Notes: generated by a model not told the origin, from the letters alone. A stretch of 64,000 bases of DNA from an uncultured cyanobacterium (GCA_963697335.1 CAVONQ010000007.1:96001-160000); one strand, 5' to 3'; shown: positions 11,262 through 54,795, counted from the first letter of the stretch. Numbers and translations: made by a program.

Positions 11262-12582
11262 TCAGCGAGTAAGGATATTGTAAAGAGAGGCAGCATTCAA
11301 CAAGGGGCCGAGGGGTGCCACTGCCTGCGTCAGAGTGTCATTAAAGCGGGTCCAGTTGTTACGGGCCACCACGATCACGTCACCATTCCGCAGGGGAGGA
11401 TTGGCCTCCGAACCCAGGGCTGCAGAGGGGTTAAAGGCAACTTCCTTGGACAGTGATTGTACCATCAGCCTCCAACCGCAGCAGTCGGACGTTGGATGCT
11501 TTGGCGCGCTGGGGATCAAGGCCACCGGCGGCCATCACCGCATTGGTCAGAGGGCTATTTGATTTCACCTGCTTGACGCCGGGAAACTCTACTTCACCAA
11601 CGACATTGACCGAGATGGCGTCAGGAGCAAAGTTGGATGCCCCAGTGGCAATGAGGGCTTCATTGGAGCGAACCCCTTCCAGCTTGCCGACCCTAATCAT
11701 GTCACCGTCATTAATCAGCGGATTGACGACCTGCTGATTATTCATCAAGACGCTCAGGTAGTCGAAGTGATATTCGCGGGGTGACTCTCCAGGACCATTG
11801 CCTCGACGTACCAGCACCAGATTGGACAGATCCCCCAGGGCAGTGAGGCCCCCGGCCCGCTGAATCGCATCCACCATGGTGGGCCAGCCATAGGTGGCTA
11901 CGACAGTGCCCTCTACACCGGGGCCCGCCGCTCGCAGTGTTGAGGTCGATGGATCGCGGCTGAGGGTATAAAAGCCAGGACGCTCCAGCTGACCCACCAA
12001 CGAGACCCGCACCGGCCTCGGCGCGATCAGGTCGATGTAGACTAGGGGTCGACGCAGGATCGTGGAGTAAAGGCTTGTGATGCGCTGATTGGATTCATCT
12101 AGGGTCAAGCCCCACACATTCACCGACCCGATCCGAGGCAGGTTCACCGTGCCATCACTGAGAACCTCAGTTTCGGCGCCGTAACCATCAACCTTGAACA
12201 CAGAAATCCGCACCCGATCCCCAGGGGCCAGGCGATAGCGGAAATTGCTTGTCTCAGGGCTGAAGATGGCCCGGGTGGCCTGCTGGGTGGCGCGCGGTGG
12301 CTGCGCCACGGGTTCGGCCAGGATGCGGCTGGGAACGGGAGTGTCTGCTTGGGGGGCGGGTGCATCCCCGGACATCGGGTAAGCCTGGCGCTCGGCCAAC
12401 CAAGGGCCTGAAGTCTGCTTGATGGTTGTGGGGCGCTGCCGGCCTGCAGGCTGCTCCTGGCCTGCCTGAGCGGGGTTGCCCGGAACCATCAGGCCTGGAC
12501 TGGCGAGCAGAAGGCCTGCAGCCCCGATCCGCAGCGGAGCCTGCGCGGCAGCCGTCAAATGGACACGGATAGAGGGCAGCAT
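11262..12582 (-). pseudogene. Polysaccharide export protein (Wza/KpsD-like, SLBB repeats); +1 frameshift near 11450 as assembled
   Basis: YRLAPGDRV, DGTVNLPRIG, VSLVGQLERPG, VNVVGEVEFPG. The C-terminus (KEVAFNP...NPPLRNGDVIVV) continues in the next frame; removing one base gives ~439 aa. Confidence 0.85.
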
Positions 12583-12789
12583 CGAAACCTCGACGAACAC
12601 GCTGATCCCCAGCCACTACAGGCGGTTCAGCATTGGGCGTTCAGTGTAAGGGCAGAGTCTGATCTGATCCAGGTGACAGCCTCACAACCGGCAGGCCCCT
12701 GGTGCCCCCAGCCCTGGGCCTTGGTTCGGGGCCACCCCAGGTGGTTTCATGGGCAGCACGACGTCCACCTCGCTCAGCCCCAGCGACCA

Positions 12790-13764
12790 ATGATTCCCCT
12801 GAGCCGAGCACTGATTGATGACATCAAGCCATTCTATTTTTTTTCCAACTACGGACTAACCCTCTTTCTGATTCCGGGAAACACTTTTGAAAACTTTTCG
12901 GACGAAGTTGGCCTGCTCCGAGAGTTAACCTACAGGCAGAAGCTGTCTGGGTCTGGGAACAACAAGGACCTGGATGGCAGAGATCCCTTTTACGATCATT
13001 TCATCCTGGTTGATGATGCCACATTTGCACTAGCCGGGACAGCCCGTCTACAGTTTGTGCCAGCCCAGAATCCCTCATCAGCCCCCAGCACCGGCAGCCT
13101 TACCCACAGCTCAGCAACGTCATATCTTGAGCACGTCTACCCAGGGATCAAGAACTTTCTGATTACCCGCGGCAGCCACCTCGAAATCGGCAGAGTTGCC
13201 ATCTCACCAGCATTCCAGAGGCAACCGGCCTCGCTGATGACCCTGTTCCGGGGAGGCCTTCAAGCAGCTACCGCTTCAGGCTACACAGCAGTTTATGGAT
13301 TAGTGTCTTATAATCACTTTCAATACCCAGGGAGTGTGAACGATTTTTTTCTTCGCTCCCTGATGCTCTCTCCTTTCAGGGACGACAACACCGACATCCC
13401 TCCAGCCCGCTACCCGAGGGGATTCCGCGGCGATGAGCGTCACGCCGATGGTAGCTGCCAATCCATTCAGAAGCTGGAAGGCGAAACCCAGAAGCAGCTG
13501 GCCAGCTTCAAGCTGCCGGTGTTGTTACGCCAATACATCAACCTCATGGGAGCCAAAACCCATGATATTTCCGTCGCCAAAGACTTTAATCAGATCACGG
13601 AGATTCTGATGACAGCCGACCTCACCAAGGTCCCCCGGCGCCGGCTGCAGCATTTCGTCGGCTTTGGCCACGCGCCGGTCTACCGCCAGTTTCCCTGGTT
13701 CCGTGGGCCTTCTGGATCAGACCCAAGCGATGCAAGGCCTGCTGGCAAACCCTTGAGTCAATGA
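12790..13764 (+). CDS. GNAT-family acyl-ACP N-acyltransferase (OlsB / OlsF-C-terminal-like)
   Basis: EVGLLRELTYR...SG..KDLDGRDPFYDHFILVD, LEIGRVAISPAFQR, LPVLLRQYINL, DFN motifs. ATG at 12790. Confidence 0.8.
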   Translation: MIPLSRALIDDIKPFYFFSNYGLTLFLIPGNTFENFSDEVGLLRELTYRQKLSGSGNNKDLDGRDPFYDHFILVDDATFALAGTARLQFVPAQNPSSAPSTGSLTHSSATSYLEHVYPGIKNFLITRGSHLEIGRVAISPAFQRQPASLMTLFRGGLQAATASGYTAVYGLVSYNHFQYPGSVNDFFLRSLMLSPFRDDNTDIPPARYPRGFRGDERHADGSCQSIQKLEGETQKQLASFKLPVLLRQYINLMGAKTHDISVAKDFNQITEILMTADLTKVPRRRLQHFVGFGHAPVYRQFPWFRGPSGSDPSDARPAGKPLSQ

Positions 13765-13824
13765 TAAAATACTGTATGCAGCACACTTGATCGCCCAGCT
13801 CCAGCTCGTCATAGTAGCAAACTC

Positions 13825-14172
13825 TTGACAGATTCAGCCACCCCAAAATCCAACGAAGGACTGCCATCCTCCGAAGGCCACCTGCAATCCAACATCAGCC
13901 TTCCTCTCACCGAGGCTGAGATACTGGCTGGCTTGAAAGATATTTTGGCGCGCATCGCCGGGGCCGATCCTGAGGGAATTGAGCTCGACGCCCTGATCAT
14001 TGATGACGTCGGTGTTGATTCCCTTGGTTTCTACGAGATTTTGATCGAAGCTGATGAAACCATGGGCATCAAGATCGAAGAGAAGGATCTTCTTACTTTC
14101 AAAACCGTACGCGATATCGTTGACTACGTCACGTCCCGATCCGGCACCCTGACCCAGCCAGCTCCGCGCTGA
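13825..14172 (+). CDS. Dedicated acyl carrier protein
   Basis: Acidic; DDVGVDSL phosphopantetheine Ser motif; KTVRDIVDYV. Start uncertain. Confidence 0.9.
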   Translation: MTDSATPKSNEGLPSSEGHLQSNISLPLTEAEILAGLKDILARIAGADPEGIELDALIIDDVGVDSLGFYEILIEADETMGIKIEEKDLLTFKTVRDIVDYVTSRSGTLTQPAPR

Positions 14173-14273
14173 GAGTCCCAGGGTCAACCAACCGGGTCGG
14201 AACAGCGGCTTCAAAGCCGTAAGCCCAGCCGCGTAGGTTTGGCCATGTTTCGCGTCGAGCGCTGAACCCAGCC

Positions 14274-15524
14274 GTGGCCAAGGAGAGGATCGCCATCACG
14301 GGCATGGGAGCTCTCTCTCCCCTGGGTGTCGGGGTGGAGAGCAGTTGGCAGGCCTATCTCGGGGGCCGCTCCGGGATCAGCCCCCTGGTGGAGGACTGGG
14401 CCCAGGACCTCCCATCCCGCGTGGCTGGGGTCATCCCAGGAGATCCCACGGCCCAGCTGGAACCCCTGCTCAGGCGCCGGCTCGATCGCTGCTCCCAGCT
14501 CGCCCTGCTCGCAGCCCGTGAAGCCTGGCAGCAGTCAGGCCTGGGCGCAACGGACCCGTCGCCTGAACGCCGGGTTGCGGTGGTGGTGGGCTGCGGCATC
14601 GGCGGTCTGGAGACCATGGGGCAGCAGTACCGGATCCTGCTGGAGCGGGGCCCCTCGCGGGTGAATCCGGTAACGGTGCCGATGCTGATTCCCAATGCGG
14701 GGGCAGGGCAGATCAGCATTGCCCTCGGTGCCCACGGCGGCGCTCACACGCCGGTTTCGGCCTGTGCTTCCTCCGCCGAAGCCCTGCTCTGGGCCCTGAT
14801 GCTGCTGCGCGATGACCGGGCCGATGTGGTGGTGGCGGGGGGGTCGGAGGCCCCCGTGAACCAACTGGGCCTGGCGGGCTTCAGTGCCATGCGCGCCCTC
14901 TCCACCCGTAACAGCACACCGGGGCTGGCCTCCAGCCCCTATGGCCTGGATCGGGATGGCTTCGTGATCGCTGAGGGGGCCGGCATTCTGGTTCTGGAGC
15001 GCGAGGCCGATGCCCACGCCCGCGGCGCCCGCTGTGAGGCATTCCTGCTCGATGCGGGCAGCACCGCCGATGCCCATCACATGGTGTCCCCCGAACCCCA
15101 TGGCACCCAGGCCCGGGCCGCCATGCAGCAGGCCCTGCGGCGCAGCGATCTGGCCGTGGCGGATCTGAGTTTCATCCAGGCCCATGCCACGGGCACGGCC
15201 ATGGGCGATCTGGCGGAAGCCCAGGCGATCGGTGGACTTCTGAAAAAAGCCAACGCGCCCCTACCGGTGACGGCACCGAAAGGACAATTCGGCCACATGC
15301 TTGGCGGGGCCGGCGCGGTGGAAACCATCATGGCCATCAGGTCCCTGGCCAGCGGGCAGGTTCCTGTGAGCGCCAACAGTCAGCCCCAGGATCCCGCCGT
15401 AGAGCTCCACCTAGTCCAGGGGGAACCCACCCGGCTTACGGTGCCGGTTGAGCAACGCTGTGTGCTCAAAAATGCGTTTGGCTTTGGTGGGCACAACATT
15501 GCCCTGGTGTTGCAGGGGGCCTGA
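14274..15524 (+). CDS. fabF: Beta-ketoacyl-ACP synthase II (FabF-like)
   Basis: Cys-His-His triad in SACASS, QAHATGT and GHMLGGAG; DGFVIAEGAG; NAFGFGGHN. Confidence 0.93.
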   Translation: MAKERIAITGMGALSPLGVGVESSWQAYLGGRSGISPLVEDWAQDLPSRVAGVIPGDPTAQLEPLLRRRLDRCSQLALLAAREAWQQSGLGATDPSPERRVAVVVGCGIGGLETMGQQYRILLERGPSRVNPVTVPMLIPNAGAGQISIALGAHGGAHTPVSACASSAEALLWALMLLRDDRADVVVAGGSEAPVNQLGLAGFSAMRALSTRNSTPGLASSPYGLDRDGFVIAEGAGILVLEREADAHARGARCEAFLLDAGSTADAHHMVSPEPHGTQARAAMQQALRRSDLAVADLSFIQAHATGTAMGDLAEAQAIGGLLKKANAPLPVTAPKGQFGHMLGGAGAVETIMAIRSLASGQVPVSANSQPQDPAVELHLVQGEPTRLTVPVEQRCVLKNAFGFGGHNIALVLQGA

Positions 15525-17576
15525 TCAGCTGGCCACATGGTGATGACGCTCGGCCCAGCCGGCCGCATCCTGGGAGTAGTAGTCCATCACGCGGCGGGAG
15601 AAACCCTCCCGATGGTTCTCCTCGGCTGGCAACCTGAGATCCTCGGGACGCCCCTGGCGGCAGTGGAGCACGACCCGTGGGGCCGTGAGTCGCTGGGCCA
15701 GCAGGCGCAGTGGTTTGTAGAGCGCCCCAGCCTCGATGCCCTCCAGCCCCCTGTACTCAAACCACCACGGCACCACCGTGGCCCGATGGCGACGGGCCAG
15801 CAGATAGGCACTGGCGGAAGCGCGCTGCAGGATCGACGTCCTCAGGGAACCGTTGGGCGCGATCATCAACTGGCCGTGGCGCTCCAGCACCTGCGACGAC
15901 CTCCAAAGTGTGCTGCGCCGTTGATCGGGATGGCGATGATCCAGGAGCACATGGCCGGCATTGGTGGCGGAACGGTCAAAGAACGGCAGCAACCGGTTCA
16001 GGTGCAACCCTGAGGTGGTGACCGCGGGAATCTGCAGATAGCCCTGGATGGCGAACACGTCAAAGGGGCTGTTGTGATTCCAGATATGGATGCGTCGGCA
16101 CTGATCATCCTGGAGCAACAGGCTGTCGTCCACAATCACGTCAATGCCCACAGCGCGCAGGCCGAAGCGGGCCACCACGGTGAGCAAGCTTCGGGCCAGC
16201 CGCCTCAGCCTCAGAGTGAGAGCGATCAGCTCCAAGGCATAGGCCGCATACATGGCCCCGAAGCAGAACAGGCGATAGATCACCCGCAGGGGCACCACCC
16301 AGCCCAGCCTGGTGGCCTTGGGCCGGCCCAGCTGGGCTGGGCTGGACCGCGCCGAAAGAGCCACCGGCAACGTCTCGCGAAAAGGGAATTCACCGTCAAA
16401 GTTGCCGTTGATCTGGGTGGTGGTGACCAGGTGGTTGTAGAAGCGATAGAACAACGGTCGACTGCTGGTCTGGGGCGAGGCCCAGAAACCATCGAGTGGC
16501 TGTTGATCAGTAAGGCCGGGCAGGTTGTAGAACGTCTGCCCCATCACTTTGGTGGCTGCCGCGTGGAAGAGGGCCTGCAGTCCCACTGTGCTATTCACGG
16601 TGACCACGCCGCGACAGGTGCGGATGAAGGCACTGAGGGGACCATCATGGAAGTAATGAACCCGACCAGCGACACCTTCACGCTCGGCCAGAAGGTGAAT
16701 CAATGATTTGTAATTGTTGTAACCGCGATCGCGGGGATGGTGCTTGAAGGCAAGATGGTCGGATGGGTGAGCATGGGCAGCAAAGGACACGACCACTGTT
16801 TCAATGAAATCGTGCATGCCACGAAAGCCTGACCCTGTGGTGATCTGGGAGTCACTTGAAACCTGAAGAACGGCCAGAAAGAACGACAGGTTTTCGACCA
16901 ACAATTGCTTGAGCTTGCGTTCCTGCAGCCGATACATCCAGTAGCGCACCGAGCCCCGCAGTTGGCACCAGAGAAAGGCTGGCGAGGGCTGCAGCTTATG
17001 CTCCCCTTCAATGATCCTGTAGCGCGTGAAGGCGTGCTGGATGAAGGTGGGTGCTTTCCAGATCTTGCGCCAGCGCCATCCAGGATCAAGGCGTGCCTGG
17101 GGCAGATGGGCCACCGCTGGCAGAGCCTCGTAGAAACTCACCGGCTGGTTGAGATTGGAACGGCAGTTGACGCGATCACGCTCCAGAGTGACATAGTTCG
17201 GCCTGACGTAACCCAGCTCAAAAACATAAGCATCAACGTTCAGGCTGTGGGCCACCTCAATGGCCAGGCGATGGGGATCAATAAAGTCGCCATACATAAA
17301 CAGGTGGCGGATTCCCTTTTCCTGAATCACCTCTCGCAGAAAAGAGGGCCATTCCTCCATGGAACCTGAAAACGGAATCCTGGCCTGCCGAGGAAATCCG
17401 AATTCGTGCAGCGGATAGGAAATCTTGTAAACCGGCACACCGCAATCGTGCAGATATCGCCAAAGGCGCGAGAAGAACAGACCGATCGGGCCCATCAGGA
17501 GCAGCACCGGGCCTTCGATCTGAATCTGAACGCTGGCCAATGCCACACCTGCGGCCGGATGAACGCATTCTCCCAT
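15525..17576 (-). CDS. kpsS: KpsS-like capsule priming transferase fused to a C-terminal PlsC-type acyltransferase domain
   Basis: KpsS motifs LLLMGPIG, FELGYVRP, LQVSSDSQI, KHHPRDRG, VTVNSTVG, TQINGNF; then a hydrophobic helix; then IWNHNSPFD (HxxxxD), IAPNGS, VVP. Confidence 0.85.
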   Translation of the reverse strand: MGECVHPAAGVALASVQIQIEGPVLLLMGPIGLFFSRLWRYLHDCGVPVYKISYPLHEFGFPRQARIPFSGSMEEWPSFLREVIQEKGIRHLFMYGDFIDPHRLAIEVAHSLNVDAYVFELGYVRPNYVTLERDRVNCRSNLNQPVSFYEALPAVAHLPQARLDPGWRWRKIWKAPTFIQHAFTRYRIIEGEHKLQPSPAFLWCQLRGSVRYWMYRLQERKLKQLLVENLSFFLAVLQVSSDSQITTGSGFRGMHDFIETVVVSFAAHAHPSDHLAFKHHPRDRGYNNYKSLIHLLAEREGVAGRVHYFHDGPLSAFIRTCRGVVTVNSTVGLQALFHAAATKVMGQTFYNLPGLTDQQPLDGFWASPQTSSRPLFYRFYNHLVTTTQINGNFDGEFPFRETLPVALSARSSPAQLGRPKATRLGWVVPLRVIYRLFCFGAMYAAYALELIALTLRLRRLARSLLTVVARFGLRAVGIDVIVDDSLLLQDDQCRRIHIWNHNSPFDVFAIQGYLQIPAVTTSGLHLNRLLPFFDRSATNAGHVLLDHRHPDQRRSTLWRSSQVLERHGQLMIAPNGSLRTSILQRASASAYLLARRHRATVVPWWFEYRGLEGIEAGALYKPLRLLAQRLTAPRVVLHCRQGRPEDLRLPAEENHREGFSRRVMDYYSQDAAGWAERHHHVAS

Positions 17577-17685
17577 GCTGCACCGGCCGGGCCGGGCTGA
17601 AACCCAGTGCTGACAGGCACTGAGGCAGGTGATGGGTCCTCGGGACAAGGCGTAGGATCTGTCAAAACAATCTTCGGGACAAAGG

Positions 17686-19887
17686 ATGGGGTCCAGCCCT
17701 CAGTCGGCCGCTTCCCCGCTCCTGCCCAGCCCCAGTCCCGACCCTGCGGCCGCCGCCGCAACCAGTGCTGCCTACGGCGGCCCGGGACCGTTGATCGGCC
17801 TTCCCGACCCCCTCGTGCTGGCCCACACCACCCTGGAGGCGTTGCTGGCTCCGGCCAGGGTCGTGGTGGGGCGCCGTGCCTGCAGGCGCAGCGACCTGGA
17901 GGCGTTGCTGGTGTGGGGACGGCGCCGCAGCGGGCTCTGGGGCGAACGAGAGGCCGTGCGCCGTGACCTGCCCCTGTGGCGCGTCGAGGACGCCTTCCTG
18001 CGCTCGGTGGATCCAGGGCCCAAGGCACCACCGCTTGGCATCCTGCTGGACGATCGGGGGATCCACTACGACGCCTCCGGGCCCAGCAGGCTGGAGACCC
18101 TGATCGCCTCGGGCCTGGGGCCTGCCCAGCAGCAGCGTGCCCGGCAGCTGGCGGCAGCCTGGCGGGAGCACCGGGTCAGCAAGCTGAACGGGTCCCGGGA
18201 GTCGCCGCCCCCCGATGGCCCCTTCGTGCTGGTGGTGGATCAGGTGGCGGGCGATGCCGCCATCCGCCACGGCGCCGCCTCCGCAGCCAGCTTCCTGGCG
18301 ATGCTCGAGGCAGCACTGCAGGACTTTCCCACTCACCAGGTCGTGCTGAAGACCCACCCCGACGTGGTGAGCGGGCGGCGCCGGGGGCATTTCCCGGCGG
18401 AGGTCTTCCAGCACCCCAGGGTGCTGGCCTGTGCCGATGGGGGCCATCCGGCGGCCCTGCTGGAAGCCGCCAGCGCCGTGTATGTGGTCACCTCTCAGAT
18501 GGGTTTCGAGGCCATGATCTGGGGGCGGCCCGTGCACTGCTTCGGCATGCCCTTCTACGCCGGCTGGGGGCTCAGCCACGACCGCCTGCCCGCGCCAGAC
18601 CAGGCGGCCCGGGCAAAAGGCGCCCGCGCAGGAGGTGCCCAGCTGGAGAATCTGGTGCATGCCTGCCTGGTGGGGTACGCCCGCTACCTCAACCCCGAAA
18701 CCCGCCAGCCCACCAGTCCGGAGGCTCTGATCGCCCATATCGGCCTGCAGCGGCGCCAGCGGGCCGCGGTGCCCCCGGCCCTGGAGGTGTTCGGGGTCGC
18801 CGGCTGGAAACGCCAGGCCGTGCGCCGCTTTCAGCGCACCCTCAGTCCAGGCCGACTTCGCTTTCGCCCCTTCCATGCCAGGCCGACCCGGGAGGCCGGT
18901 TGGCGCTGCCTGGTGTGGGGCAACCGGGTGGGGCTGGGACTGCGCAAGGCTGGCAGCCCCCTGATCCACGCCGAAGACGGCTTTCTGCGCTCAGTGGGGC
19001 AGGGATGGTGGCTGCGCTGGGTGCCGCCGGTGTCCTGGGTGGTGGACCACTCCGGCATCTACTACGACGCCTCCTGCGCCTGCGACCTGGAGACCTTCCT
19101 GGCCGAACACCACTTCACGGCCGCCGAGCGACAGCGGGCAGCGGCCCTGCGGCAGCGGATCGTGGCGGCGGGGGTGACGAAATACAACCTTCGCGCACCC
19201 CTGTGGAGCCGTCCCTCAGACCTGGGCCGCAGACAGGTGCGCCTGGTGCCCGGCCAGGTGGAGGTGGACCTCTCGATCCGTTACGGCGTGCCGAAGCAGG
19301 CCAGTGTGCGCAGCAATCTGCAGCTGCTGCAAGCGGTGCGGGCGGCCTATCCGGACGATTTCCTGATCTACAAGCCCCATCCGGATGTGGTCTCCGGGCG
19401 TCAGAAACCCGGCCCAGGGGAACCGGAGGCTCACCGCCACTGCGATCTGGTGCTGGTCGAGGCGCCGATGGACCATCTGCTCCAGGAGGTGGACAGCGTG
19501 CACGTGCGCACCTCGATCACCGGCTTCGAAGCCCTGCTGCGGGGCATCCCTGTGGAGACCTGGGGCATGCCCTTCTATGCCGGCTGGGGGCTCAGCCGCG
19601 ACCAGCTGCAGTGCGAGCGGCGGGGCCGGGCCCTGGTGCTCGATGACCTGGTCTATGGCGCCCTGATCCACTATCCGATCTATCTGAGCCAGGGCTCGGG
19701 GGACTTCACCACGCCGGAGCGGGCCGTGGAGGAGCTGGGGCTGCTGCGCCGCGATCCCGGCGCCTTCCCCACCGCCCTGCCCCGCTGGCTGGAGCTGCTG
19801 GGGCTGGATCCGCCGCCGGAGCTGCGCTTCCGGCTGGCCCAGATCCGAGCGCGGCTGCGTGCCTGGAGCCCCGATGGGCGCTGCTAG
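17686..19887 (+). CDS. kpsC: Capsule biosynthesis protein KpsC (two-domain beta-Kdo-transferase-like)
   Basis: Duplicated motif sets: EDAFLRS/EDGFLRS, GIHYDAS/GIYYDAS, DQVAGD/GQVEVD, KTHPD/KPHPD, GFEA, MPFYAGWGLS. Confidence 0.95.
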   Translation: MGSSPQSAASPLLPSPSPDPAAAAATSAAYGGPGPLIGLPDPLVLAHTTLEALLAPARVVVGRRACRRSDLEALLVWGRRRSGLWGEREAVRRDLPLWRVEDAFLRSVDPGPKAPPLGILLDDRGIHYDASGPSRLETLIASGLGPAQQQRARQLAAAWREHRVSKLNGSRESPPPDGPFVLVVDQVAGDAAIRHGAASAASFLAMLEAALQDFPTHQVVLKTHPDVVSGRRRGHFPAEVFQHPRVLACADGGHPAALLEAASAVYVVTSQMGFEAMIWGRPVHCFGMPFYAGWGLSHDRLPAPDQAARAKGARAGGAQLENLVHACLVGYARYLNPETRQPTSPEALIAHIGLQRRQRAAVPPALEVFGVAGWKRQAVRRFQRTLSPGRLRFRPFHARPTREAGWRCLVWGNRVGLGLRKAGSPLIHAEDGFLRSVGQGWWLRWVPPVSWVVDHSGIYYDASCACDLETFLAEHHFTAAERQRAAALRQRIVAAGVTKYNLRAPLWSRPSDLGRRQVRLVPGQVEVDLSIRYGVPKQASVRSNLQLLQAVRAAYPDDFLIYKPHPDVVSGRQKPGPGEPEAHRHCDLVLVEAPMDHLLQEVDSVHVRTSITGFEALLRGIPVETWGMPFYAGWGLSRDQLQCERRGRALVLDDLVYGALIHYPIYLSQGSGDFTTPERAVEELGLLRRDPGAFPTALPRWLELLGLDPPPELRFRLAQIRARLRAWSPDGRC

Positions 19888-19921
19888 GTTCGGGCTCAGT
19901 GCGGACCCCGGAGTCCTGGGG

Positions 19922-20680
19922 ATGGAACTGCCGATCCCGCGCCACGACTGGCCCGAACCGCTGATCGACCCCTCCCTGCCGCCCCTCGCCCTGATTCCGG
20001 CCCGGGGAGGGTCCAAGGGCATTCCCCACAAGAATCTCCAGCTCCTGGGCGGCCTCCCCCTGGTGGGACGCACGGTCCAGAGCGCCCTCGCCGCCCATTG
20101 CATCGGCCGAGTGGTGGTCAGCACCGACGATGGGGCGATCGCGGCGGCGGCCGCCGCCGCAGGCGCCGAGGTGGTGACCCGGCCTGCGGCACTGGCCGGG
20201 GACGGGGCATCGTCGGAGTCGGCCCTGGTGCACGCTCTGCGCGATCTGGGTCAGCAGGGCGCCCTACCCCGCATGTTCGTCTTTTTGCAGTGCACCTCAC
20301 CCTTCACCACCGGCGAGCAGATTGACCGGGTGGTGCAGGGGCTGCAGGGATCAGAGGCCAACCTGGCCTTTGCGGTAACGCCGTGGCACGGCTTCCTGTG
20401 GGGCCGCGATCCTGACGGCTGGGGCGTGGGCCTCAATCACGACGCCGGCCGCCCCCGCCAGAGGCGCCAGGACCTGGAGCCCTGCTTCCTCGAGACAGGC
20501 TCCATCTATGCCCTGCGCACCCAAGCGTTCCTGAGTGCCGGCAGCCGCTTCGTGCCTCCCCTGCTGCCGGTGGAGATCGAGGCGCTCTCCCCGGAGATTG
20601 ACACCCCGGCAGATCTTGCCCTCTGCCGTCAGCTGGCCCCCCTGCTTGATGGCGCCACTCCCGGAGGGCTGGGCGGATGA
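19922..20680 (+). CDS. neuA: Acylneuraminate (nonulosonate) cytidylyltransferase
   Basis: IPARGGSKGIPHKN, VVSTDD, LQCTSPF, ETGSIY, EIDTPAD. Start uncertain (19874 or 19922). Confidence 0.92.
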   Translation: MELPIPRHDWPEPLIDPSLPPLALIPARGGSKGIPHKNLQLLGGLPLVGRTVQSALAAHCIGRVVVSTDDGAIAAAAAAAGAEVVTRPAALAGDGASSESALVHALRDLGQQGALPRMFVFLQCTSPFTTGEQIDRVVQGLQGSEANLAFAVTPWHGFLWGRDPDGWGVGLNHDAGRPRQRRQDLEPCFLETGSIYALRTQAFLSAGSRFVPPLLPVEIEALSPEIDTPADLALCRQLAPLLDGATPGGLGG

Positions 20681-21978
20681 GCCGCCTGCAGGACCGGCAG
20701 ATCGCCGCCATCGCGAGCTTCGACTCCTTTGGCAAGACCGCCATGGCGATGTTGTCGGTGTGCCGCAAGCAAGGGGCAATGACCACCCTGTTCCTGCTGG
20801 AAATTCAGGGCCGCCGTCTGTCGCGGCGGCAGCTGATCGAAATCCAGCGGATCGACGCCAAAGTGACGATCGTGCGCCAGGACTGGCAGACGCTCCGCCA
20901 GATCCGCGCCACCCTCGCCGGGCTCGATGCCCTCGTGCTGGGCCTGGACGGCCAGCGCACCCGCGAGCTGCAGATGCTGCTGCGTTCGGAGATGCCTGGC
21001 GGACGCTGGCCCCTGACGGTGAGCGCCTACCCCGGCATCCTCTTCCGCCACCAGATCGAGGGCATGATGGATCGCTCCGGGGCCGATCTGCTCTGCCTCA
21101 ACTCCCCGGTGGACCTGGCGCTCTACAGCCACGCCTGCGAAGCCCTGGGGATCTCGGCCAGCAACGCCGTGGTGACGGGTCTGCCGATCCTCTGGAACCT
21201 TCACCCAGGCCGCCGCGGCCCCGTGGAGAAGCCGAGCATCGTCTTCTTTGAACAGCCCTCGGTGCCAGGCAATCCTCTGCAGCGCCACTACGTCTGCAAC
21301 CGGCTCAACGACCTCGCCAAGCGCTGGCCAGACCACACGGTGATCTTCAAGCCGCGCACCTCCGGGGTGGAGCGCACCCTGCACAGGCGCCATGGCGAGA
21401 TGGCCAGCCGCATCGAGAAGCTGATGCGAAAATCGCCGAATCTGCAGATCAACTACAAGCCGAGCCTCGCCCTGCTACGCCAGTGTGGCTGCGCCATCAC
21501 CGTGTCCTCGACGGCGGCCATGGAGGCGATGGCCCTGGGCATCAGCACCCGCATCGTGGCCGACCTGGGGGTGAACGAAACCCTCGGCAACCACTACTTC
21601 GTGGCCTCAAACACGGTGCGCAGCTTCGAGGCGATCATTGCCGATCCGTTCACGCCGATCCACGACGAGGCCTGGCTGGACAGCCACGGCCGCTGTCAGG
21701 ACGGCCGCGAACGCTTCATCGAGGCCATGGCCGAGCGGCTCGAACGGGGCAGGGAGGCCCCAGCTGGCAGCCCCTCCACCACCTCCCCGGGGCCGCCGGG
21801 CTGGGGGGCCGAGCCCTGGCAGCAGTATGCCCTCCGCCACGGCGGCCGGCGGATGCTGAGCAGCGCCGGCAACCGCTCCCGCCTCAAGACCAGCCACCGA
21901 GGCAAGAACGTGATGCGCTATCTGCGCGACCTGGTGCTCGGCCTGCACTGGGTTGAGGACTTCGTCCGCGGCCGATGA
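20677..21978 (+). CDS. Putative CMP-sugar-dependent glycosyltransferase, paralogue A (DUF6716-like)
   Basis: ASFDS, LLCLNSP, TGLP, VFFEQ, FKPR, TVSSTAAMEA, DLG. ATGA overlap with neuA. Confidence 0.7.
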   Translation: MSRLQDRQIAAIASFDSFGKTAMAMLSVCRKQGAMTTLFLLEIQGRRLSRRQLIEIQRIDAKVTIVRQDWQTLRQIRATLAGLDALVLGLDGQRTRELQMLLRSEMPGGRWPLTVSAYPGILFRHQIEGMMDRSGADLLCLNSPVDLALYSHACEALGISASNAVVTGLPILWNLHPGRRGPVEKPSIVFFEQPSVPGNPLQRHYVCNRLNDLAKRWPDHTVIFKPRTSGVERTLHRRHGEMASRIEKLMRKSPNLQINYKPSLALLRQCGCAITVSSTAAMEAMALGISTRIVADLGVNETLGNHYFVASNTVRSFEAIIADPFTPIHDEAWLDSHGRCQDGRERFIEAMAERLERGREAPAGSPSTTSPGPPGWGAEPWQQYALRHGGRRMLSSAGNRSRLKTSHRGKNVMRYLRDLVLGLHWVEDFVRGR

Positions 21979-23024
21979 GGGTGCTGCTGGTGAGTGACAG
22001 CCCGGCGAGCCGCTTCGCCTGCGGGGCCCTCGCCTCGGCCCTGGAGTCTGCGGGAGCGGAGGTGTGGGTGGATGCACCCCTGGAGCTGGAGGCCCTCAGC
22101 TGCAGCGATCTGCTGCTCGATCTGGACGGGGTGGGTCTGTTCATCAGCCCCCTGCAGGTGCCCCCCTTCCTGCGACGACTGCGGCAGGCTGCCGCCCTGA
22201 GGGGCCGTACGCCGGTGGCCGTGTTCAGTGGGCCGTCCACGCCCCTGGTGGGCGATGACCTGGCAAAGGATCTGCTGCCACGGCTCGGGGTCGACCTGCT
22301 CTGCCTGCAGGGCCCGCGCCAGCAGGAGGAGCTGGCAGACCTGGGGCGCACGAGCGGGCAATCGCCGCCGCCGACGGCCTTGCTGGGGTGGTGGGGGCTG
22401 ACGCCGAAGCTCCCTGCCGCGGCACCGGGATCCCGGCCACGGCGCCTGGTGTTCCTGGAGCAGGCGATGCTGCCGCCCGCCCCAGGAGCGCGCCTGCGGC
22501 TGCTGGAAGTGCTGGAGCGCCTCTGCGCCAGCTCTCCGGCCTGGGAGGTGATCCTTCAGAGCGATCCATTGCAGGAGGCACTGGCCCACGCAGGTGATTA
22601 CCCTGATTCGGCGGGTGGCGAAGCCAGCGAACCCAGCCTGGCCGCGTTGCTGGAGCAGCGCCCGCCCCTGGCCAATCTGCGCCTGGCCCCGCCCTCGGCC
22701 TGGGCCCGCAGCCTCGATCGAGCCGGCGTCTGCGCCACGATCAGCAGCCCCCTGCTGTGGGAGGCCCTGGGCCGTCAGCTGCCGCTGCTGTTGCTGGGCG
22801 ACTATGGCATCCGCTCCGATATGGAGGGGCCCCTACTGTTTGGCTCAGGGCTGATGGGCCGGATCACCGGCTGCGAAAACCTCGAGGAGCTGCTGCATCT
22901 GCCCTGCCCCAATCCCGGCTGGCTGCGGGAGCTGGGCTGGGAGATCGGCCCCGGTGCCGGTGCCCTGATCCAGTGGCTGGCGGACAGGCCGGCGCAGGCC
23001 ATTGGCCTGGAGGAGTGGCGATGA
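21975..23024 (+). CDS. Putative glycosyltransferase paralogue B (DUF6716-like, degenerate)
   Basis: LVSDS, LLCLQGP, VFLEQ, TISSPLLWEA, DYG. ATGA-coupled. Confidence 0.7.
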   Translation: MRVLLVSDSPASRFACGALASALESAGAEVWVDAPLELEALSCSDLLLDLDGVGLFISPLQVPPFLRRLRQAAALRGRTPVAVFSGPSTPLVGDDLAKDLLPRLGVDLLCLQGPRQQEELADLGRTSGQSPPPTALLGWWGLTPKLPAAAPGSRPRRLVFLEQAMLPPAPGARLRLLEVLERLCASSPAWEVILQSDPLQEALAHAGDYPDSAGGEASEPSLAALLEQRPPLANLRLAPPSAWARSLDRAGVCATISSPLLWEALGRQLPLLLLGDYGIRSDMEGPLLFGSGLMGRITGCENLEELLHLPCPNPGWLRELGWEIGPGAGALIQWLADRPAQAIGLEEWR

Positions 23025-24343
23025 GCGCCGTTCTGCTGGTTGCCGACTCAGACAGCCAGATGCTGTACTGCGAGGCCCTGGCCCGGGGGCACCGCGCCGC
23101 CGGCCTTGAGCTCACCATCCACCTAATCCCCCGGGACGGCACCCCAGAGGCGGTGAAGGGGCGCATGGAACAGCTGGGAACGGTGCAACAGGGAAGCCTG
23201 GGCACGCTGCTGCAGGACCCAGGCCTCAGCCGCTTCGCGGCGATCGGCGTGTTCCTCACCGGCAGCAAGATCGCCGGCTTCCGCAGCGCCTACCTCCGCT
23301 CTCGTCAGCACGATCCCCAGCGCAGGGCCCTGCTCTTCTGCGGGTTCAACGGCGTGGTGCTGGAACGCTTCGAGGAGGCCCTCACCTGGCGCCTGGGCTA
23401 CGACCTGATCTGTCTCAACGGCCCGCGCGACCAGGCGCGCTTCGAGCGCTTCCTGCGACACACGCCCTTTCGGGCCCAGCGCGCGGTGCTCACCGGATTG
23501 CGGCGCACCAGGGTGGCGGAGGTCAGGCCCCTGGCCGAACGGCCCCGGCAGCTGGTGTTCGCGGAACAGGTGGCCATGCCCGCGAGCCTGGAGGAGCGGC
23601 GCCAGCTGGCCAGGCTGGTGGTGGACCTGGCCCATCGGTTCAGCGACTGGCAGGTGGTGCTGAAGCCTCGGGTGGCCCCCCATGAGGCCACGTTCCATGA
23701 GTTCTGCGAGCACATCACCACCACCCTCGAACAGGTGTGCCGTCGCCGTCCGGCCAACCTGGCGATCTCCTACGCCCCGCTGGCCGCGCTGCTGGCCGAC
23801 AGCCGCCTGTTCGCCACGCTGTCATCCACGGCGTTGTTCGATGCCCTCGACCATGGCTGCTCAGCGCTGGTGATGGGCGACTTCGGCCTGCGCCCCGACC
23901 TGGGCAGCGACTTCTTCGGGGGCTCAGGACTGGTTCGCAATCTGGCAGGCATCGACGACCTCGACGCCCTGGTGGGACTGCAGGGAAATCCGGCCTGGCT
24001 CCATTGGGTGGGGTACGACGGGGCCTGCAACCCCAGCCAGCTGTTCGACGCCATCAAGCGGCATGGGCTGCAGCAGGACGGTGCCCCAGCTCAAGACCCA
24101 CTGGAGCTGGAGCATCGGGGCTACGTGGTGAATTCCGCCGACCTCTCCAGCAACCAGCTGCGGCTCGCTGCGGAAGCGGCCATCGCGGCTCACGACTACG
24201 CCGAGGCGGGGCAACTGCTGGAGATGGCGGCCCTGCAGCGGCCTCACAATGGCAACATCCAGCGCAGACTGAAGGCGGTGCGTTGCCCCAGTCATCTCGG
24301 GCGGCGCCTGCTGCTGCTGGCCAGCCCCAGGTTCAACCTGTAA
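23021..24343 (+). CDS. Putative glycosyltransferase paralogue C (DUF6716-like) with C-terminal TPR-like helix pair
   Basis: VADSDS, LICLNGP, TGL, VFAEQ, LKPR, TLSSTALFDA, DFG. ATG at 23021 overlaps the preceding stop. Confidence 0.72.
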   Translation: MSAVLLVADSDSQMLYCEALARGHRAAGLELTIHLIPRDGTPEAVKGRMEQLGTVQQGSLGTLLQDPGLSRFAAIGVFLTGSKIAGFRSAYLRSRQHDPQRRALLFCGFNGVVLERFEEALTWRLGYDLICLNGPRDQARFERFLRHTPFRAQRAVLTGLRRTRVAEVRPLAERPRQLVFAEQVAMPASLEERRQLARLVVDLAHRFSDWQVVLKPRVAPHEATFHEFCEHITTTLEQVCRRRPANLAISYAPLAALLADSRLFATLSSTALFDALDHGCSALVMGDFGLRPDLGSDFFGGSGLVRNLAGIDDLDALVGLQGNPAWLHWVGYDGACNPSQLFDAIKRHGLQQDGAPAQDPLELEHRGYVVNSADLSSNQLRLAAEAAIAAHDYAEAGQLLEMAALQRPHNGNIQRRLKAVRCPSHLGRRLLLLASPRFNL

Positions 24344-29526: not shown

Positions 29527-29668
29527 CAAGGCCAGCACGACATGGACGTCGGCGCGAGAGTTGAGTCCACCATTATATTCTGAGCGCAGCCTCGCCGTCA
29601 GGCCGATGTAGTCTTGGGGTTTGGTGACCCTGCATTCTAGAGTCTCTCAACAGTCTGGGATACGCGTG

Positions 29669-30410: not shown

Positions 30411-30464
30411 ACACTTTCATGGGACAACCGGCTCACTTGAGAGCTGGCTTGAAGCCCCGCACCC

Positions 30465-51534: not shown

Positions 51535-52920
51535 TTACTGACGCCGGGAGATACCGAGCACAAAGCTCGCCACACCCCAACCGACAAGCAACAGCCCCAC
51601 AAGGGAAAGCAAGCCCTTCCAACGCCAATCCAGAGACTGACCTGATGGGGTTTCGGGATTACTGAGCAGAACCAGGAACTTCAGCTGGCGTTGGCTCTCA
51701 AGACGGCTGTTATCAGCAGCCAGTTGGGCCGCCTTGACAGAGGCCTCAGCAAACTGAACCTCCGTGGTTAGGTTCCTCGACTCTACTAACTTCTGATTGA
51801 AATTCTTAGCTTCGGGGCCAACAAGCTTGGAGCGCTCAACATCAATTTGCTGCCGTAGCTCAGCAATCTGATCAGCAACAAAAGAGACTTCAGGTCCTTC
51901 CTGGTCAAGGAACTGGCGCTTCAAGCGTCCTTCTTCCACCTGAAGATCGATCAGCCTGGTTTCCATGGCGGCAATGAAGCGACTTGTGGCTTCAGCGGCA
52001 GCCTCAGGGTTGATCTCACCTTGGCGGTCATTGAAAGCGGCTAACGCCTGTTGCGCCTTGGCAAGGCGCTCACGGGCACCTTCGAGTTCCTGTTCAGCAA
52101 AAGCCTGCTGATTACGGCTGATGTTCTGGTTGGAATTATTGAGAAAGTTTTCCGCTTCATCGAGGAGCAAGCGGTTCAGCTTGAAGGCTGTTGTTGGGTT
52201 GAGGCCCGTCGTTGTCATCTGGATAACACCCGTTAAATCCTGGGGCACCACACTGACCTGACGGCGGAAGAAAGCTAGCTGCTGATCAAAGGCCGCATTC
52301 TTTGACAATCCTGCAAAAGGGTCAGCACCATTTTTGGCATAACTCTGTTCAGGCTTCAAACTGAGAAAGACCCTCTGCATGACCTCCGGTGATGTGAGGT
52401 AAACAGAGAGAAATCGGCCATCCTCAAGAGAACCCAACATGGTGGGGCCGGCAAGTACGGAACCGAGAAGCGAGGGTGTGACATTATTTGGAGCCTGGGG
52501 CAATCGTACGATAAAATCAGATGTGACTTGATAGCGATTGCGACCAATAACGCCAAAGTAGAGAACCCCTCCCGCCAAAATCAAGGCGGAAATGCGCTTC
52601 GGTCCAGGGATCAACCAACGTCGCTGCTCGGGGCTCAAACCCTTCCAGCGGCGGCCTCCATCCTGGACAGATTCAACGCCAGTACCAGACTGTTCGTGAA
52701 CGGGCGGCCGGCCCACATTGGGGAGCTCATCCTCGACAAGCCCAATCGCCCGGAGAACCCCAGACAAAGAATGGCTTACGCGACTGGCTAGACCTCCAGC
52801 CACCATGCCAATCTCCATGGCATGCGCCTCTGGCCGATCGCGCCTGTTCAGCCGACGCTCCCGCCTGGCGCGTGCTGGCCTAGGGAGGGATGCAGAGCTG
52901 GCGGAGCGATCAAAGTTCAT
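51535..52920 (-). CDS. kpsE: Capsule export polysaccharide co-polymerase KpsE-like
   Basis: TM...RYQVTSDFIVR, YLTSPEV, long coiled coil, ESQRQLKFL, C-terminal TM; next to kpsMT. Start uncertain. Confidence 0.85.
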   Translation of the reverse strand: MNFDRSASSASLPRPARARRERRLNRRDRPEAHAMEIGMVAGGLASRVSHSLSGVLRAIGLVEDELPNVGRPPVHEQSGTGVESVQDGGRRWKGLSPEQRRWLIPGPKRISALILAGGVLYFGVIGRNRYQVTSDFIVRLPQAPNNVTPSLLGSVLAGPTMLGSLEDGRFLSVYLTSPEVMQRVFLSLKPEQSYAKNGADPFAGLSKNAAFDQQLAFFRRQVSVVPQDLTGVIQMTTTGLNPTTAFKLNRLLLDEAENFLNNSNQNISRNQQAFAEQELEGARERLAKAQQALAAFNDRQGEINPEAAAEATSRFIAAMETRLIDLQVEEGRLKRQFLDQEGPEVSFVADQIAELRQQIDVERSKLVGPEAKNFNQKLVESRNLTTEVQFAEASVKAAQLAADNSRLESQRQLKFLVLLSNPETPSGQSLDWRWKGLLSLVGLLLVGWGVASFVLGISRRQ

Positions 52921-53070: not shown

Positions 53071-53871
53071 TCACATGGACTGCTCCTCATCAGCCAGCAA
53101 CAGGGTTTCATTATTTCCGTAGATAAAGAAACCAAGCCCTACCAAAAAGACCGTTGAGCCAATCAGATAGGAAGCAGAAACACCAGGTATCGGATAGTCG
53201 TGGTTGAACGAGTGTCGCAACAATTCAATTCCATGGGCCAACGGGTTCCACAGGATCCAGCCTCGAAAAATATTAGGGATTGTGCTGATTGAGAAGAAGA
53301 TGCAAGACGTGAATAACAACAGGCGACGCACAGCTGTCCTGGCGATGCTGGCCACAAACGGCAACCGATGCCCCACGATCAGGGTGACGAGGCCAACACC
53401 AAAAGCAAGCAGCGAAAGCATGATGAAGTAAAAAACAGCAAGCCCGGGCTCTTCTACAATTGGCTTCCATTCATAAAGGAATGACCCAAGCACAAAAGCA
53501 AGCAGAAGTAGCGAAAAGACTTGAGTATCAAGAACCGCAGAGCCCAGAAGGTAATCGATCGGACGTATTCTGCTGTAATAAGTTAGCTTTATGCTTTTCT
53601 TCACTCCTCCCAGGGCTTTCAGTGCTACTTCCGAGAACATGAAGAAGCCAACAAAGCCAATGGCCATCCACAACACTGGGTTGATGTAATCAGGCTGCAG
53701 GCTTGCCTGACTCCCAAAAAGGCGAAATGACATGAAGATAGCGATGAAGAAGAGCGGTTCTACAAACACACCCACAACACCCATCGGGCCCTTCGCTGAA
53801 CGCATTTGCAGCTCTCGCTTGGCAATAGCATTAACAATCCGCACCTGGAGCAGTAGCTTCTGAATAATCAT
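53071..53871 (-). CDS. kpsM: Capsule ABC transporter permease KpsM
   Basis: RELQMR, EP, IRPID, FTSCIFF, WNPLAHGIELLR; six-TM pattern. Confidence 0.92.
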   Translation of the reverse strand: MIIQKLLLQVRIVNAIAKRELQMRSAKGPMGVVGVFVEPLFFIAIFMSFRLFGSQASLQPDYINPVLWMAIGFVGFFMFSEVALKALGGVKKSIKLTYYSRIRPIDYLLGSAVLDTQVFSLLLLAFVLGSFLYEWKPIVEEPGLAVFYFIMLSLLAFGVGLVTLIVGHRLPFVASIARTAVRRLLLFTSCIFFSISTIPNIFRGWILWNPLAHGIELLRHSFNHDYPIPGVSASYLIGSTVFLVGLGFFIYGNNETLLLADEEQSM

Positions 53872-53874
53872 GAC

Positions 53875-54795
53875 TCAGCCTTCGCCCCACATAGAGGGCT
53901 GCACGTTCCGAGGCTGTCTTTGAGGCTGTGATGCACCAAAGACTGGCACCTCAAGCAGTTCATCCATCGTCCCCTGCAGATCTTCTTCAACATCTGAATG
54001 TTGCCTGAAGTGCCGGGACAAGGATCTTTCCTTACGGGCTGCCTTGATTTCTTTTGCCAATTGAGCGCAATCATCGAGCGATCCTCGGTTAATTATTGCC
54101 CCATCCTTAAGCACGATTCCTTCGTTGCAATAGTCCAGCGCAAAGCTTTGTGAATGAGAGGCCTCTGCGATCAAAGTTCGCCCCTCTAGGCGCCGATCAA
54201 CGAGGCGCTTAACCTGATTCATGAACGGAACGTCAACGCGACAATTCCATCCATCCCATCGCATCACGGGGTACACGTTAAACTGAAAGGCCAAGGACAA
54301 TGCCAGCTTGAGCCGGTCTTTCATGCCCGCCGTATACTTTTCAAGGGGCTCATCGAAAGAAGAGCCAAGATCACATAGCTTTCTAATGAAATCGACTTCT
54401 CGCTCATCATCTTCATAGACACCATAAATTGAAACGAGAAATTCAGTATTGGCTCGGCCCGTGAGTACAGGCATCAGGGGCATCCTGGAGCCGATCAACC
54501 AGGAAGCCGAACCACCCACCAGAAGTTCGCCGCTGTTGATCATTTCATGACCCGCCAGACAGCTCAAGAAGGCACGGCTGGTCTCCACAGAAGAAGAGAA
54601 CAGTGCAATTTTACTTCCAGCGTTGATGGTGAGGGAGAGATTGTCCAGCACCGTCAGCGTGCGGCTGCCCCCAAGCGACACCCGCTTGGTGACCTGGTCA
54701 AAGACCACAGTCCCCCGCTCAAGATCAGCAGGGTTTCTCGTTGGCAGGAGCCGCGTTGGCGTGAGGCGCGAGCTCGCCACGGTCCATCCAGGCAA
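53875..54795 (-). CDS. kpsT: KpsT-like ABC ATP-binding subunit with degenerate Walker A/B
   Basis: VLDNLSLTI, LTGRANTEF, LGSSFDEPLEKYTAGMKDRLKLALSLAFQF, ASH; directly upstream of kpsM. Start uncertain. Confidence 0.8.
   Translation of the reverse strand: MPGWTVASSRLTPTRLLPTRNPADLERGTVVFDQVTKRVSLGGSRTLTVLDNLSLTINAGSKIALFSSSVETSRAFLSCLAGHEMINSGELLVGGSASWLIGSRMPLMPVLTGRANTEFLVSIYGVYEDDEREVDFIRKLCDLGSSFDEPLEKYTAGMKDRLKLALSLAFQFNVYPVMRWDGWNCRVDVPFMNQVKRLVDRRLEGRTLIAEASHSQSFALDYCNEGIVLKDGAIINRGSLDDCAQLAKEIKAARKERSLSRHFRQHSDVEEDLQGTMDELLEVPVFGASQPQRQPRNVQPSMWGEG

Follow-up and report, generated by a model that had tools for sequence, protein, structure and literature searches.

Positions 12790-19887 of a 64,000-nucleotide stretch of DNA from an uncultured cyanobacterium (GCA_963697335.1 CAVONQ010000007.1:96001-160000), referred to here in its entirety as the window, carry a block of five genes that lies within a Kps-type capsule island. 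The block encodes a GNAT N-acyltransferase, an acyl carrier protein (ACP), a beta-ketoacyl-ACP synthase II (KAS II), a KpsS-like transferase of Kdo (3-deoxy-D-manno-oct-2-ulosonate) that is joined to an acyltransferase domain, and a KpsC-like Kdo transferase. The source genome is that of a Cyanobium-like, high-GC picocyanobacterium. A protein of Cyanobium sp. NS01 is 96% identical to the KpsS::acyltransferase fusion, and the named matches are all from Cyanobium, Synechococcus or Cyanobacteriota.

The GNAT is a stand-alone protein of the OlsB/OlsF-C/GlsB type, encoded on the plus strand (12790..13764, 324 aa), and it matches PF13444 with 40.5 bits (cut-off 22.4). The longest open reading frame (ORF) starts at 12559, and the closest homologue covers 100% of the query from 12790; the lengths of the homologues (307-338 aa) fix the start at 12790. 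On the same strand follow the ACP (13825..14172; PF00550, 45.3 bits), whose start codon is uncertain and whose domain occupies residues 37-102 of the listed ORF with the serine motif GVDSLG, and the KAS II (14274..15524; PF00109, 177 bits; PF02801, 90.7 bits), which is named fabF2 in Cyanorak. The KAS stop codon (TGA, 15522-15524) directly abuts the sequence TCA (15525-15527), the stop codon of the fusion on the minus strand, leaving a gap of 0 bp. The fusion itself (15525-17576, minus strand) comprises a KpsS-like beta-Kdo transferase domain (residues 1-420, 16317..17576; PF05159, 183.7 bits) and, in residues 421-683 (15525..16316), two long helices and a domain of the PlsC/lysophospholipid acyltransferase (LPLAT) family. 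The latter scores 27.3 bits against PF01553, where the cut-off is 23 bits, and contains an HX4D motif in the form NHNSPFD at about 16059-16079. The listed ORF, which begins with TTG and has 707 codons, is probably 24 codons too long, because the 96%-identical relative has 683 aa.

Divergent from the fusion, across a spacer of about 109 bp, lies kpsC (17686..19887, plus strand), and this gene is located upstream of the fusion in related loci as well. Its 733-aa product matches PF05159 in four stretches (258.9 bits) and contains the two tandem Capsule_synth modules of a KpsC-like dual-module Kdo transferase. The other side of the block is flanked by a KpsD/Wza-like outer-membrane polysaccharide exporter with Poly_export and SLBB domains (11431..12600, minus strand; PF02563, 64.2 bits; PF10531, 55.9 bits). 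An initial annotation of the window had placed and named all of these genes correctly, including the flush ends, the HxxxxD domain on KpsS, the divergent kpsC, the exporter and an intact Cys-His-His triad in the KAS (Cys164, His304 and His341).

The KpsS domain aligns with positions 14-387 of the 390 positions in the NCBIfam KpsS model (NF050054) with a score of 272.3 bits, which is below the equivalog cut-off of 600 bits. In the fused acyltransferase domain, residues N500, H501 and D506 as well as P574, G576 and S577 are invariant among 43 sequences, and the NHx4D motif is intact in 77 of the 82 KpsS ORFs examined. The five others comprise one with an ambiguous base at the Asp codon, two that are cut by contig ends, one that is unfused, and the fused copy of locus L047, from which the catalytic Asn-His is missing. 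Directly downstream of this last copy is an intact stand-alone paralogue of 262 aa, and a PlsC-family gene of this length stands right after the fusion in four marine Synechococcus loci altogether (L029, L032 at 12086-12874, L033 and L047). Because an intact stand-alone copy follows the decayed fusion of L047, acyltransferase activity appears to be under selection even where the fused copy decays. An AlphaFold2 (AF2) model of the fusion (predicted local distance difference test score, pLDDT, 82; predicted template modelling score, pTM, 0.61) arranges the glycosyltransferase domain, helices 427-454 and 458-475, and the acyltransferase core in this order, with an unreliable domain orientation. 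A fold search with the whole fusion matched the N-terminal glycosyltransferase domain alone, to KpsC (6mgd) and to the WbbB Kdo transferase.

To examine how widely this arrangement is conserved, relatives of the fusion were sought in a scan of one genome per species. The scan returned 128, and the best 80 loci were examined. Sixty-two of these extend at least 3.8 kb past the 3′ end of the fusion and could be assessed, and the other 18 are cut by contig ends, with all of their missing genes falling past the ends. The GNAT gene is convergent on the fusion in all 62 assessable loci, and the exporter lies beyond it, adjoining the GNAT, in all 62. An ACP and a KAS are situated between GNAT and fusion in 34 of the 62 loci, where the KpsS domain is 68-88% identical to that encoded in the window and the median gap between GNAT and fusion is 1636 bp. 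The 28 loci that have the GNAT only, at a median distance of 89 bp from the fusion, show lower identity of the KpsS domain (53-62%), and their neighbouring polymer genes are different. An arrangement that recurs at every assessable related locus is far beyond chance. The initial annotation had anticipated that the lipid genes would accompany the KpsS fusion elsewhere, which holds for the GNAT; the ACP and FabF have turned out to be dispensable.

The same linkage is evident at the level of genomes. In a family sample of 201 genomes, all of them at least 90% complete, KpsS was found in 42 and the GNAT in the same 42, whereas the GNAT was found in none of the 159 others. These 42 genomes are kin, so that the count measures linkage and not independent events. 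The KpsS frame is at least 628 aa long in 41 of them. Among 300 other genomes sampled across the phylum, none has the KpsS; matches to the GNAT profile occur in 7 of them, all weak (29-34 bits). The GNAT adjoins the fusion despite differing polymer genes, which are neuB and DUF6716 genes at some loci and a GT1-like gene and a P450 gene at others. Because the linkage holds across loci with differing polymer genes, the GNAT belongs to the conserved machinery of the locus and not to its serotype-specific region.

Two further observations were made among the related loci. At the loci without ACP and KAS the neighbours are different (L060:15336-16694 and L060:17274-19955): a weakly matching GT1-like gene lies between GNAT and exporter, accompanied by a P450 gene and by a gene whose 893-aa product combines phage-lysozyme with C39/C70 peptidase domains. 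In addition, three records of metagenome-assembled genomes are labelled Bradyrhizobium, Mesorhizobium and Bifidobacterium (L007, L038 and L053) yet hold the fusion. The first of these has the same synteny and a PurB that is 84% identical to that of the window, and such taxon labels look unreliable.

By sequence, the GNAT is related to aminolipid synthases. Its family consensus retains DLDxxD..Y.H and E-x-G-R stretches, both of which also occur in the OlsF-like consensus, and the protein from the window aligns with positions 322-569 of the OlsF model NF052615 (55.6 bits, E 3e-15; equivalog cut-off 620). All 36 aligned members of the family match the C-terminal half of this NCBIfam model, and smaller numbers match the models for GlsB (20 of 36), OlsB (9 of 36) and an exosortase-linked N-acyl amino acid synthase (7 of 36), with every one of these scores far under its cut-off. 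An exhaustive profile search over 1.84 billion representatives gave 1965 matches. The 46 representatives at E <= 1e-30 are nearly all stand-alone proteins of GNAT length or fragments, and the list becomes filled, from around E 1e-35 downward, by proteins some 570-630 aa long, which match through their C-terminal half. When 46 matches of at least 550 aa were aligned for domain checks, all 46 matched the OlsF model (best E 1.8e-138), and for one of them the score is 388 bits, where the cut-off is 620. PF13444 was detected in 46 of these long relatives, PF19576 in 42 and PF01553 in 28, and those that are named come from Sediminitomix (Bacteroidota), Bacteroidia and Planctomycetota records. The nearest kin of the GNAT outside the clade are OlsF-like bifunctional aminolipid synthases, in agreement with the OlsB/OlsF-like character first ascribed to it.

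Structural comparisons were less specific. The AF2 model of the GNAT (pLDDT 90) gave as top matches in a fold search the acyl-homoserine lactone synthases TofI, RpaI and LasI, which use acyl-ACP (Z 12.9-13.0); the N-acyl amino acid synthase FeeM (Z 12.6) and generic GNATs (Z 12.4) followed within one Z unit. A sequence search of the PDB with the GNAT profile returned nothing relevant, the one match having an E value of 0.41. For distant stand-alone relatives of the GNAT (25-39% identity), two metagenome scans yielded no confirmed locus. Complex prediction for the GNAT and the acyltransferase domain, run twice and without controls, gave a score of 0.00 both times, which speaks neither for nor against contact between them.

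The fused acyltransferase domain is less easily assigned. It scores 21-24 bits against TIGR00530 (PlsC), for which the cut-off is 102.95, and is best regarded as a divergent member of the PlsC family and not as a PlsC orthologue. Comparison with the OlsF-like N-domain by hhalign (probability 95%, E 4e-8) indicates homology at the level of the superfamily only, and the source genome encodes several further PF01553 proteins. All 30 Atlas feature matches of the acyltransferase domain were PF01553 clusters, and clusters that combine KpsS with the acyltransferase are listed in the Atlas from Cyanobacteriota only. When residues 450-707 were searched among shorter proteins, none of 4238 candidates matched at E <= 0.001; this blank reflects the search and not absence, because 262-aa stand-alone copies exist in four loci. 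The initial annotation had described both halves of an OlsF-like pair. Its N-acyl half is well founded, whereas the O-acyl half is a generic PlsC-family domain and would be such a half by analogy only.

As a lead only, the third Atlas feature match of the whole fusion (score 0.78) is a 360-member cluster, mostly from Omnitrophota, in which a PF03279 lipid A acyltransferase is fused to an ELM1-like PF06258 domain. This cluster may be an analogous fusion of an acyltransferase with a glycosyltransferase.

The ACP and the KAS could in principle be the housekeeping acpP-fabF pair that simply neighbours the capsule locus, and in the source assembly this KAS is indeed the only one (PF00109), with no second ACP or KAS detected by tblastn. 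However, the housekeeping fabF block of the relatives (acpP-fabF-transketolase) was not found in the source assembly, neighbours included. Because this whole block is missing, transketolase and all, the housekeeping copy of the source genome falls in an assembly gap. In four relatives with a locus of the ACP/KAS type, KAS II is encoded twice: the copy in the locus has 57-74% identity and a second copy 38-41%, and one relative without ACP and KAS in its locus has the second type (38-41%) alone. This second copy was examined with 9 kb around it in genomes G003 and G001, and in G003 it lies beside transketolase. The scores point in the same direction: the ACP falls under every AcpP equivalog cut-off (best 63 against 84 bits), and the KAS passes the NF005589 subfamily cut-off (414.5 against 387) and misses the TIGR03150 fabF equivalog (425 against 494). 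In an alignment with two housekeeping FabFs the catalytic triad is invariant, at an overall identity of 38-41%. The locus gene also bears the name fabF2 in the accessible material of Doré et al. (2023). The paralogue pairs in relatives, the assembly gap and the missed equivalog cut-offs led us to reject the housekeeping identity, which can hardly be right. The ACP and KAS are instead true private paralogues of the housekeeping pair, as had been proposed from the window alone, and the second, housekeeping KAS of the relatives has about 40% identity to the locus copy.

On our preferred reading, the locus is a conserved module that initiates a Kps-type, ABC-transporter-dependent capsule in picocyanobacteria and is equipped with its own lipid-acylating enzymes. 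From the gene content, the fusion, the conservation of motifs, the linkage and the family relations we infer a series of chemical steps, of which only those of KpsS and KpsC rest on characterised homologues. The GNAT would take an acyl chain, probably a 3-hydroxyacyl chain, from acyl-ACP and attach it to the amino group of a small molecule that serves as head group, by analogy with the N-acylation carried out by OlsB, GlsB and the C-terminal half of OlsF. The membrane-anchored PlsC-family domain on KpsS would add a second acyl chain, in analogy to the O-acylation by OlsA, GlsA and the N-terminal half of OlsF, to give an N,O-diacylated lipid. The KpsS domain of the same polypeptide would then attach the first beta-Kdo to a hydroxyl of this lipid, KpsC would lengthen the Kdo linker, serotype-specific transferases would make the polymer, and its export would fall to KpsM, KpsE, KpsD and the ATPase. 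Where they are present, the private ACP and KAS II may channel a fatty acyl chain to a carrier reserved for it, or extend it there, and in this way fix the acyl chain of the anchor. A single condensation by KAS, together with housekeeping reduction, would give the 3-hydroxyacyl-ACP that is used by OlsB-type enzymes. The ACP and KAS would tune the pathway and not be essential to it. We estimate a probability of roughly 0.4 that KpsS primes a lipid which is made or finished by a dedicated module of two acylation steps.

Several observations weigh against this reading. The KpsS domain is a full-length, ordinary homologue, and among 29 fused acyltransferase domains 28 match the generic TIGR00530 model, two match OlsA weakly (E 0.002 or weaker), and none matches the GlsA or OlsF models. 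With a local hidden Markov model, the scores for OlsF-like N-domains (<=16 bits) and for the PlsC of the genome itself (12 bits) are likewise about the same. The GNAT occurs without the ACP and KAS at 28 of the 62 assessable loci, and no head-group biosynthesis gene is conserved among the related loci. In one of the 42 genomes (G480), GNAT, ACP and KAS face an unfused KpsS of 429 aa, and neither a PlsC domain nor KpsC is found within 12.6 kb at this variant locus (L084, G480:C39). Moreover, to our knowledge the common aminolipid head groups (ornithine, glycine and glutamine) offer no hydroxyl for a Kdo transferase. Of two reviews, one of capsule attachment (2025) gives phosphatidylglycerol (PG) as what characterised KpsS enzymes use, and one of ornithine and related lipids (2026) states that no ornithine lipids have been identified in cyanobacteria. 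Apart from these considerations, a P450 gene and a Mutator-type transposase follow at the G480 variant locus.

Because Kdo needs a hydroxyl, a head group of the serine, threonine or homoserine type, or an amino alcohol, is more plausible than ornithine or glycine. In its most specific form, our proposal is that the picocyanobacterial capsule is tethered through a phosphorus-free acyloxyacyl-amide lipid instead of PG, and that this lipid is made by the OlsB-like GNAT and the KpsS-fused acyltransferase and primed directly with Kdo by KpsS. This form, a phosphorus-free anchor of the kind that the initial annotation had suggested as a possibility, is conjectural and doubtful, possible rather than probable. 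If true, a phosphorus-free anchor would add a third type to the lipid termini of ABC-transporter capsules, and it would fit the reported enrichment of the cluster in waters poor in phosphorus and nitrogen.

Other explanations of the same genes retain more or less of the established pathway. PG could remain the acceptor, with the fused domain acylating lyso-PG or lyso-PG-Kdo from acyl-ACP, which would give a diacylated anchor or one with a selected fatty acid. The GNAT would then be accessory, for example by N-acylating an amino group near the reducing end or by making a helper lipid. PG is the known acceptor of KpsS (2025 review of capsule attachment, accessible text), the KpsS domain aligns with the KpsS model from one end to the other, and the fused domain resembles a generic lysophospholipid acyltransferase, as seen from its matches to TIGR00530 (28 of 29) and to PF01553 clusters (30 of 30 in the Atlas). 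However, PG as acceptor would leave unexplained both the strict linkage of the GNAT (62 of 62 loci and 42 of 42 genomes) and the pairing of its nearest kin with a PlsC-type domain, and the genome already encodes several other PF01553 proteins. We consider this explanation, the chief rival of our main reading, unlikely, although it deserves serious attention.

It is also conceivable that the anchor is a glycolipid resembling that of the Vi antigen or lipid A. An amino sugar would then be N-acylated by the GNAT, O-acylation by the fused domain would take place on this sugar or on the acyl chain, and the product would be an acylated sugar instead of an amino-acid lipid. The combination of an amide-linked acyl chain, an ester-linked acyl chain and Kdo recalls Kdo-lipid A, which counts in favour of such an anchor. 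The Vi antigen offers a precedent, a diacyl-HexNAc made by a dedicated acyltransferase in an ABC-transporter capsule, as given in the accessible text of the 2025 review. Nevertheless, the families matched by the GNAT (OlsF, GlsB, OlsB and the exosortase-linked synthase) all act on amino acids, and the locus contains KpsS and KpsC, which the same text describes as absent from the Vi system. A glycolipid anchor of this kind thus seems improbable. Finally, the GNAT and the acyltransferase domain might yield a membrane aminolipid in free form, or an N-acyl amino acid that is secreted, and this product would only be co-regulated with the capsule and would not serve as its anchor. Review abstracts describe OlsB/OlsA-type pairs as normally making bulk membrane lipids, and the accessible literature places the eCAG among clusters enriched in nutrient-poor waters, where lipid remodelling is common. 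The covalent fusion with KpsS in 41 of 42 genomes, the absence of the GNAT from all 159 family genomes without KpsS, and the weakness of the GNAT profile matches (29-34 bits, in 7 of 300 other genomes of the phylum) make a free product highly improbable.

The capsule island that surrounds the block extends from about 11.4 kb to 54.8 kb of the window, which starts with a phycobilisome linker gene. In addition to the exporter and the five-gene block, it encodes a PseF/NeuA-like CMP-sugar synthetase, DUF6716 glycosyltransferases and a NeuB fusion, as well as sulfotransferases, sugar-nucleotide enzymes, proteins like KpsE and KpsM, and an ABC ATPase that is very divergent. The CMP-sugar synthetase (19859..20680, plus strand; PF02348, 76.9 bits) scores 115 bits against the PseF model and at most 52 bits against KdsB models, all under cut-off, and by sequence it appears nearer to PseF/NeuA than to KdsB. 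Three putative DUF6716 glycosyltransferase genes lie in tandem at 20677-24343 (plus strand), followed at 24523-26847 (plus strand) by a gene whose 774-aa product joins three parts: an N-terminus that contains CBS, a nonulosonic acid synthase of the NeuB type with a SAF domain, and a TIM barrel resembling xylose isomerase (AP_endonuc_2). Sulfotransferase genes are located at 26847-27719, 29621-30484 and 41719-42768, and together with the DUF6716 trio they suggest a sulfated acidic polymer.

The export genes are candidates for a set like that of group 2 capsules; the KpsM-, KpsE- and KpsD-like proteins score under the equivalog cut-offs, and the ATPase is only weakly recognisable. All three genes at the far end of the island are on the minus strand. 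The KpsE-like inner-membrane export protein (51535..52920) reaches 180.5 bits against TIGR01010 BexC_CtrB_KpsE (cut-off 437.5), and the KpsM-like ABC-2 permease (53071..53871; PF01061, 43.4 bits) reaches 95.3 bits against the NCBIfam KpsM model, also under cut-off. For the divergent ABC ATP-binding subunit in the KpsT position (53875..54795) the best NCBIfam match is Wzt/RfbE, with 49 bits, and the ORF has no match to Pfam ABC_tran at E <= 0.01. A canonical Walker A motif was not seen by eye at the expected place.

Kdo supply is represented in the source genome by kdsA, whereas a full-length CTP_transf_3 (kdsB-like) gene is missing from the source assembly, which has a completeness rating of 98.8%. 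Because a full-length CTP_transf_3 gene (127-149 bits) lies elsewhere in the genomes of four complete relatives that carry the locus, the absence of kdsB is probably another assembly gap; despite its rating, the assembly thus has gaps at essential genes. The idea that the missing KdsB points to another sugar donor was rejected on the strength of the same CTP_transf_3 genes in the complete relatives.

The arrangement shares features with several known systems. As in OlsB+OlsA, GlsB+GlsA and OlsF, a PF13444 N-acyltransferase is paired with a PlsC-family O-acyltransferase. Unlike in OlsF, which unites the two in one polypeptide, the GNAT is a separate protein (about 55 against 620 bits) and the O-acyltransferase is joined to the Kdo transferase, and the fused domain is without the specific signature of OlsA, GlsA or the OlsF N-domain. 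The group 2 capsules of E. coli and those of Neisseria, with poly-beta-Kdo on PG and export by KpsMTED, resemble the locus in having KpsS, the dual-module KpsC, KpsM, KpsE and KpsD, and the fold found here is similar to those of the KpsC and WbbB beta-Kdo transferases. In contrast to these capsules, KpsS carries a C-terminal membrane acyltransferase, the ATPase in the KpsT position is highly divergent, and an N-acyltransferase, with or without ACP and KAS, lies within the conserved block.

The rhizobial rkp-1 and Burkholderia wcb capsule loci also contain polyketide synthase (PKS) or fatty-acid-type genes, and rhizobia use acpXL-fabF1XL/F2XL for a special acyl chain of lipid A. These systems and the present one have in common that lipid-building genes, or a private ACP and KAS, lie inside a surface-glycolipid locus, presumably for a special lipid part. 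The rkp-1 and wcb loci differ in having a type I PKS and an alpha-oxoamine synthase where the present locus has a GNAT and an LPLAT, and we know of no KpsS-acyltransferase fusion in the rkp-1, wcb or acpXL systems. The acyltransferase of the Vi antigen belongs to a different family. What the Vi system (diacyl-HexNAc, VexE) does share with the locus, as far as the accessible literature describes it, is a dedicated, locus-encoded acyltransferase for the lipid terminus of an ABC-transporter capsule, whereas KpsS and KpsC are absent from it, and it is not known to have a GNAT, ACP or KAS.

The genes themselves have been catalogued before, as judged from the accessible portions of the publications concerned. 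KpsS and KpsC have a confined distribution in cyanobacteria (Pereira et al., 2015), and a 12-gene Kps cluster is common to Synechococcus clades III and WPC1 (Doré et al., 2020). Two clusters, Syn-eCAG_008 and Syn-eCAG_009, are described as capsule clusters similar to E. coli loci of groups 2 and 3 (Doré et al., 2023), and supplementary file 5 of that work lists in one cluster kpsD, an "acyl-CoA N-acyltransferase", an ACP-domain protein, fabF2, kpsS, kpsC, neuA and more. The gene set is thus already on record as Syn-eCAG_008, without a lipid interpretation in the accessible material (Doré et al., 2023). The word "acyltransferase" is absent from the accessible text of the 2025 review of capsule attachment, where PG-Kdo and the diacyl-HexNAc of Vi are the known capsule termini, and "capsul", "Kdo" and "polysaccharide" are absent from that of the 2026 review of ornithine lipids. 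A full-text literature search found no interpretation of these genes as functioning in anchor synthesis, with subscription journals thinly covered, so that it is not proof that the idea is unpublished. The initial annotation, whose author knew of no description of the arrangement, is only partly right: the gene set was already on record, and for the function of the lipid genes this search found no interpretation.

A single conserved glycolipid, Kdo on PG, is regarded as the starting point of Kps-type capsules, and the Vi antigen is the only characterised exception known to us. The locus described here is a variant of the way in which Kps-type capsules are initiated, with lipid acyltransferases built in; it is conserved and catalogued, and the literature searched gives it no functional interpretation. 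The joining of the priming enzyme to a lipid acyltransferase, together with the constant presence of an aminolipid-type GNAT, suggests that picocyanobacteria may build their own capsule anchor lipid. This points to a different or custom-built anchor in the phototrophs that dominate marine and freshwater picoplankton. It also provides a testable handle on the choice of acceptor lipid and fatty acids, on the role of phosphorus scarcity in capsule anchoring, and on the function of a capsule cluster that is enriched in ocean regions low in nitrogen and phosphorus. The surface polysaccharides of these organisms bear on phage adsorption, grazing and cell aggregation.

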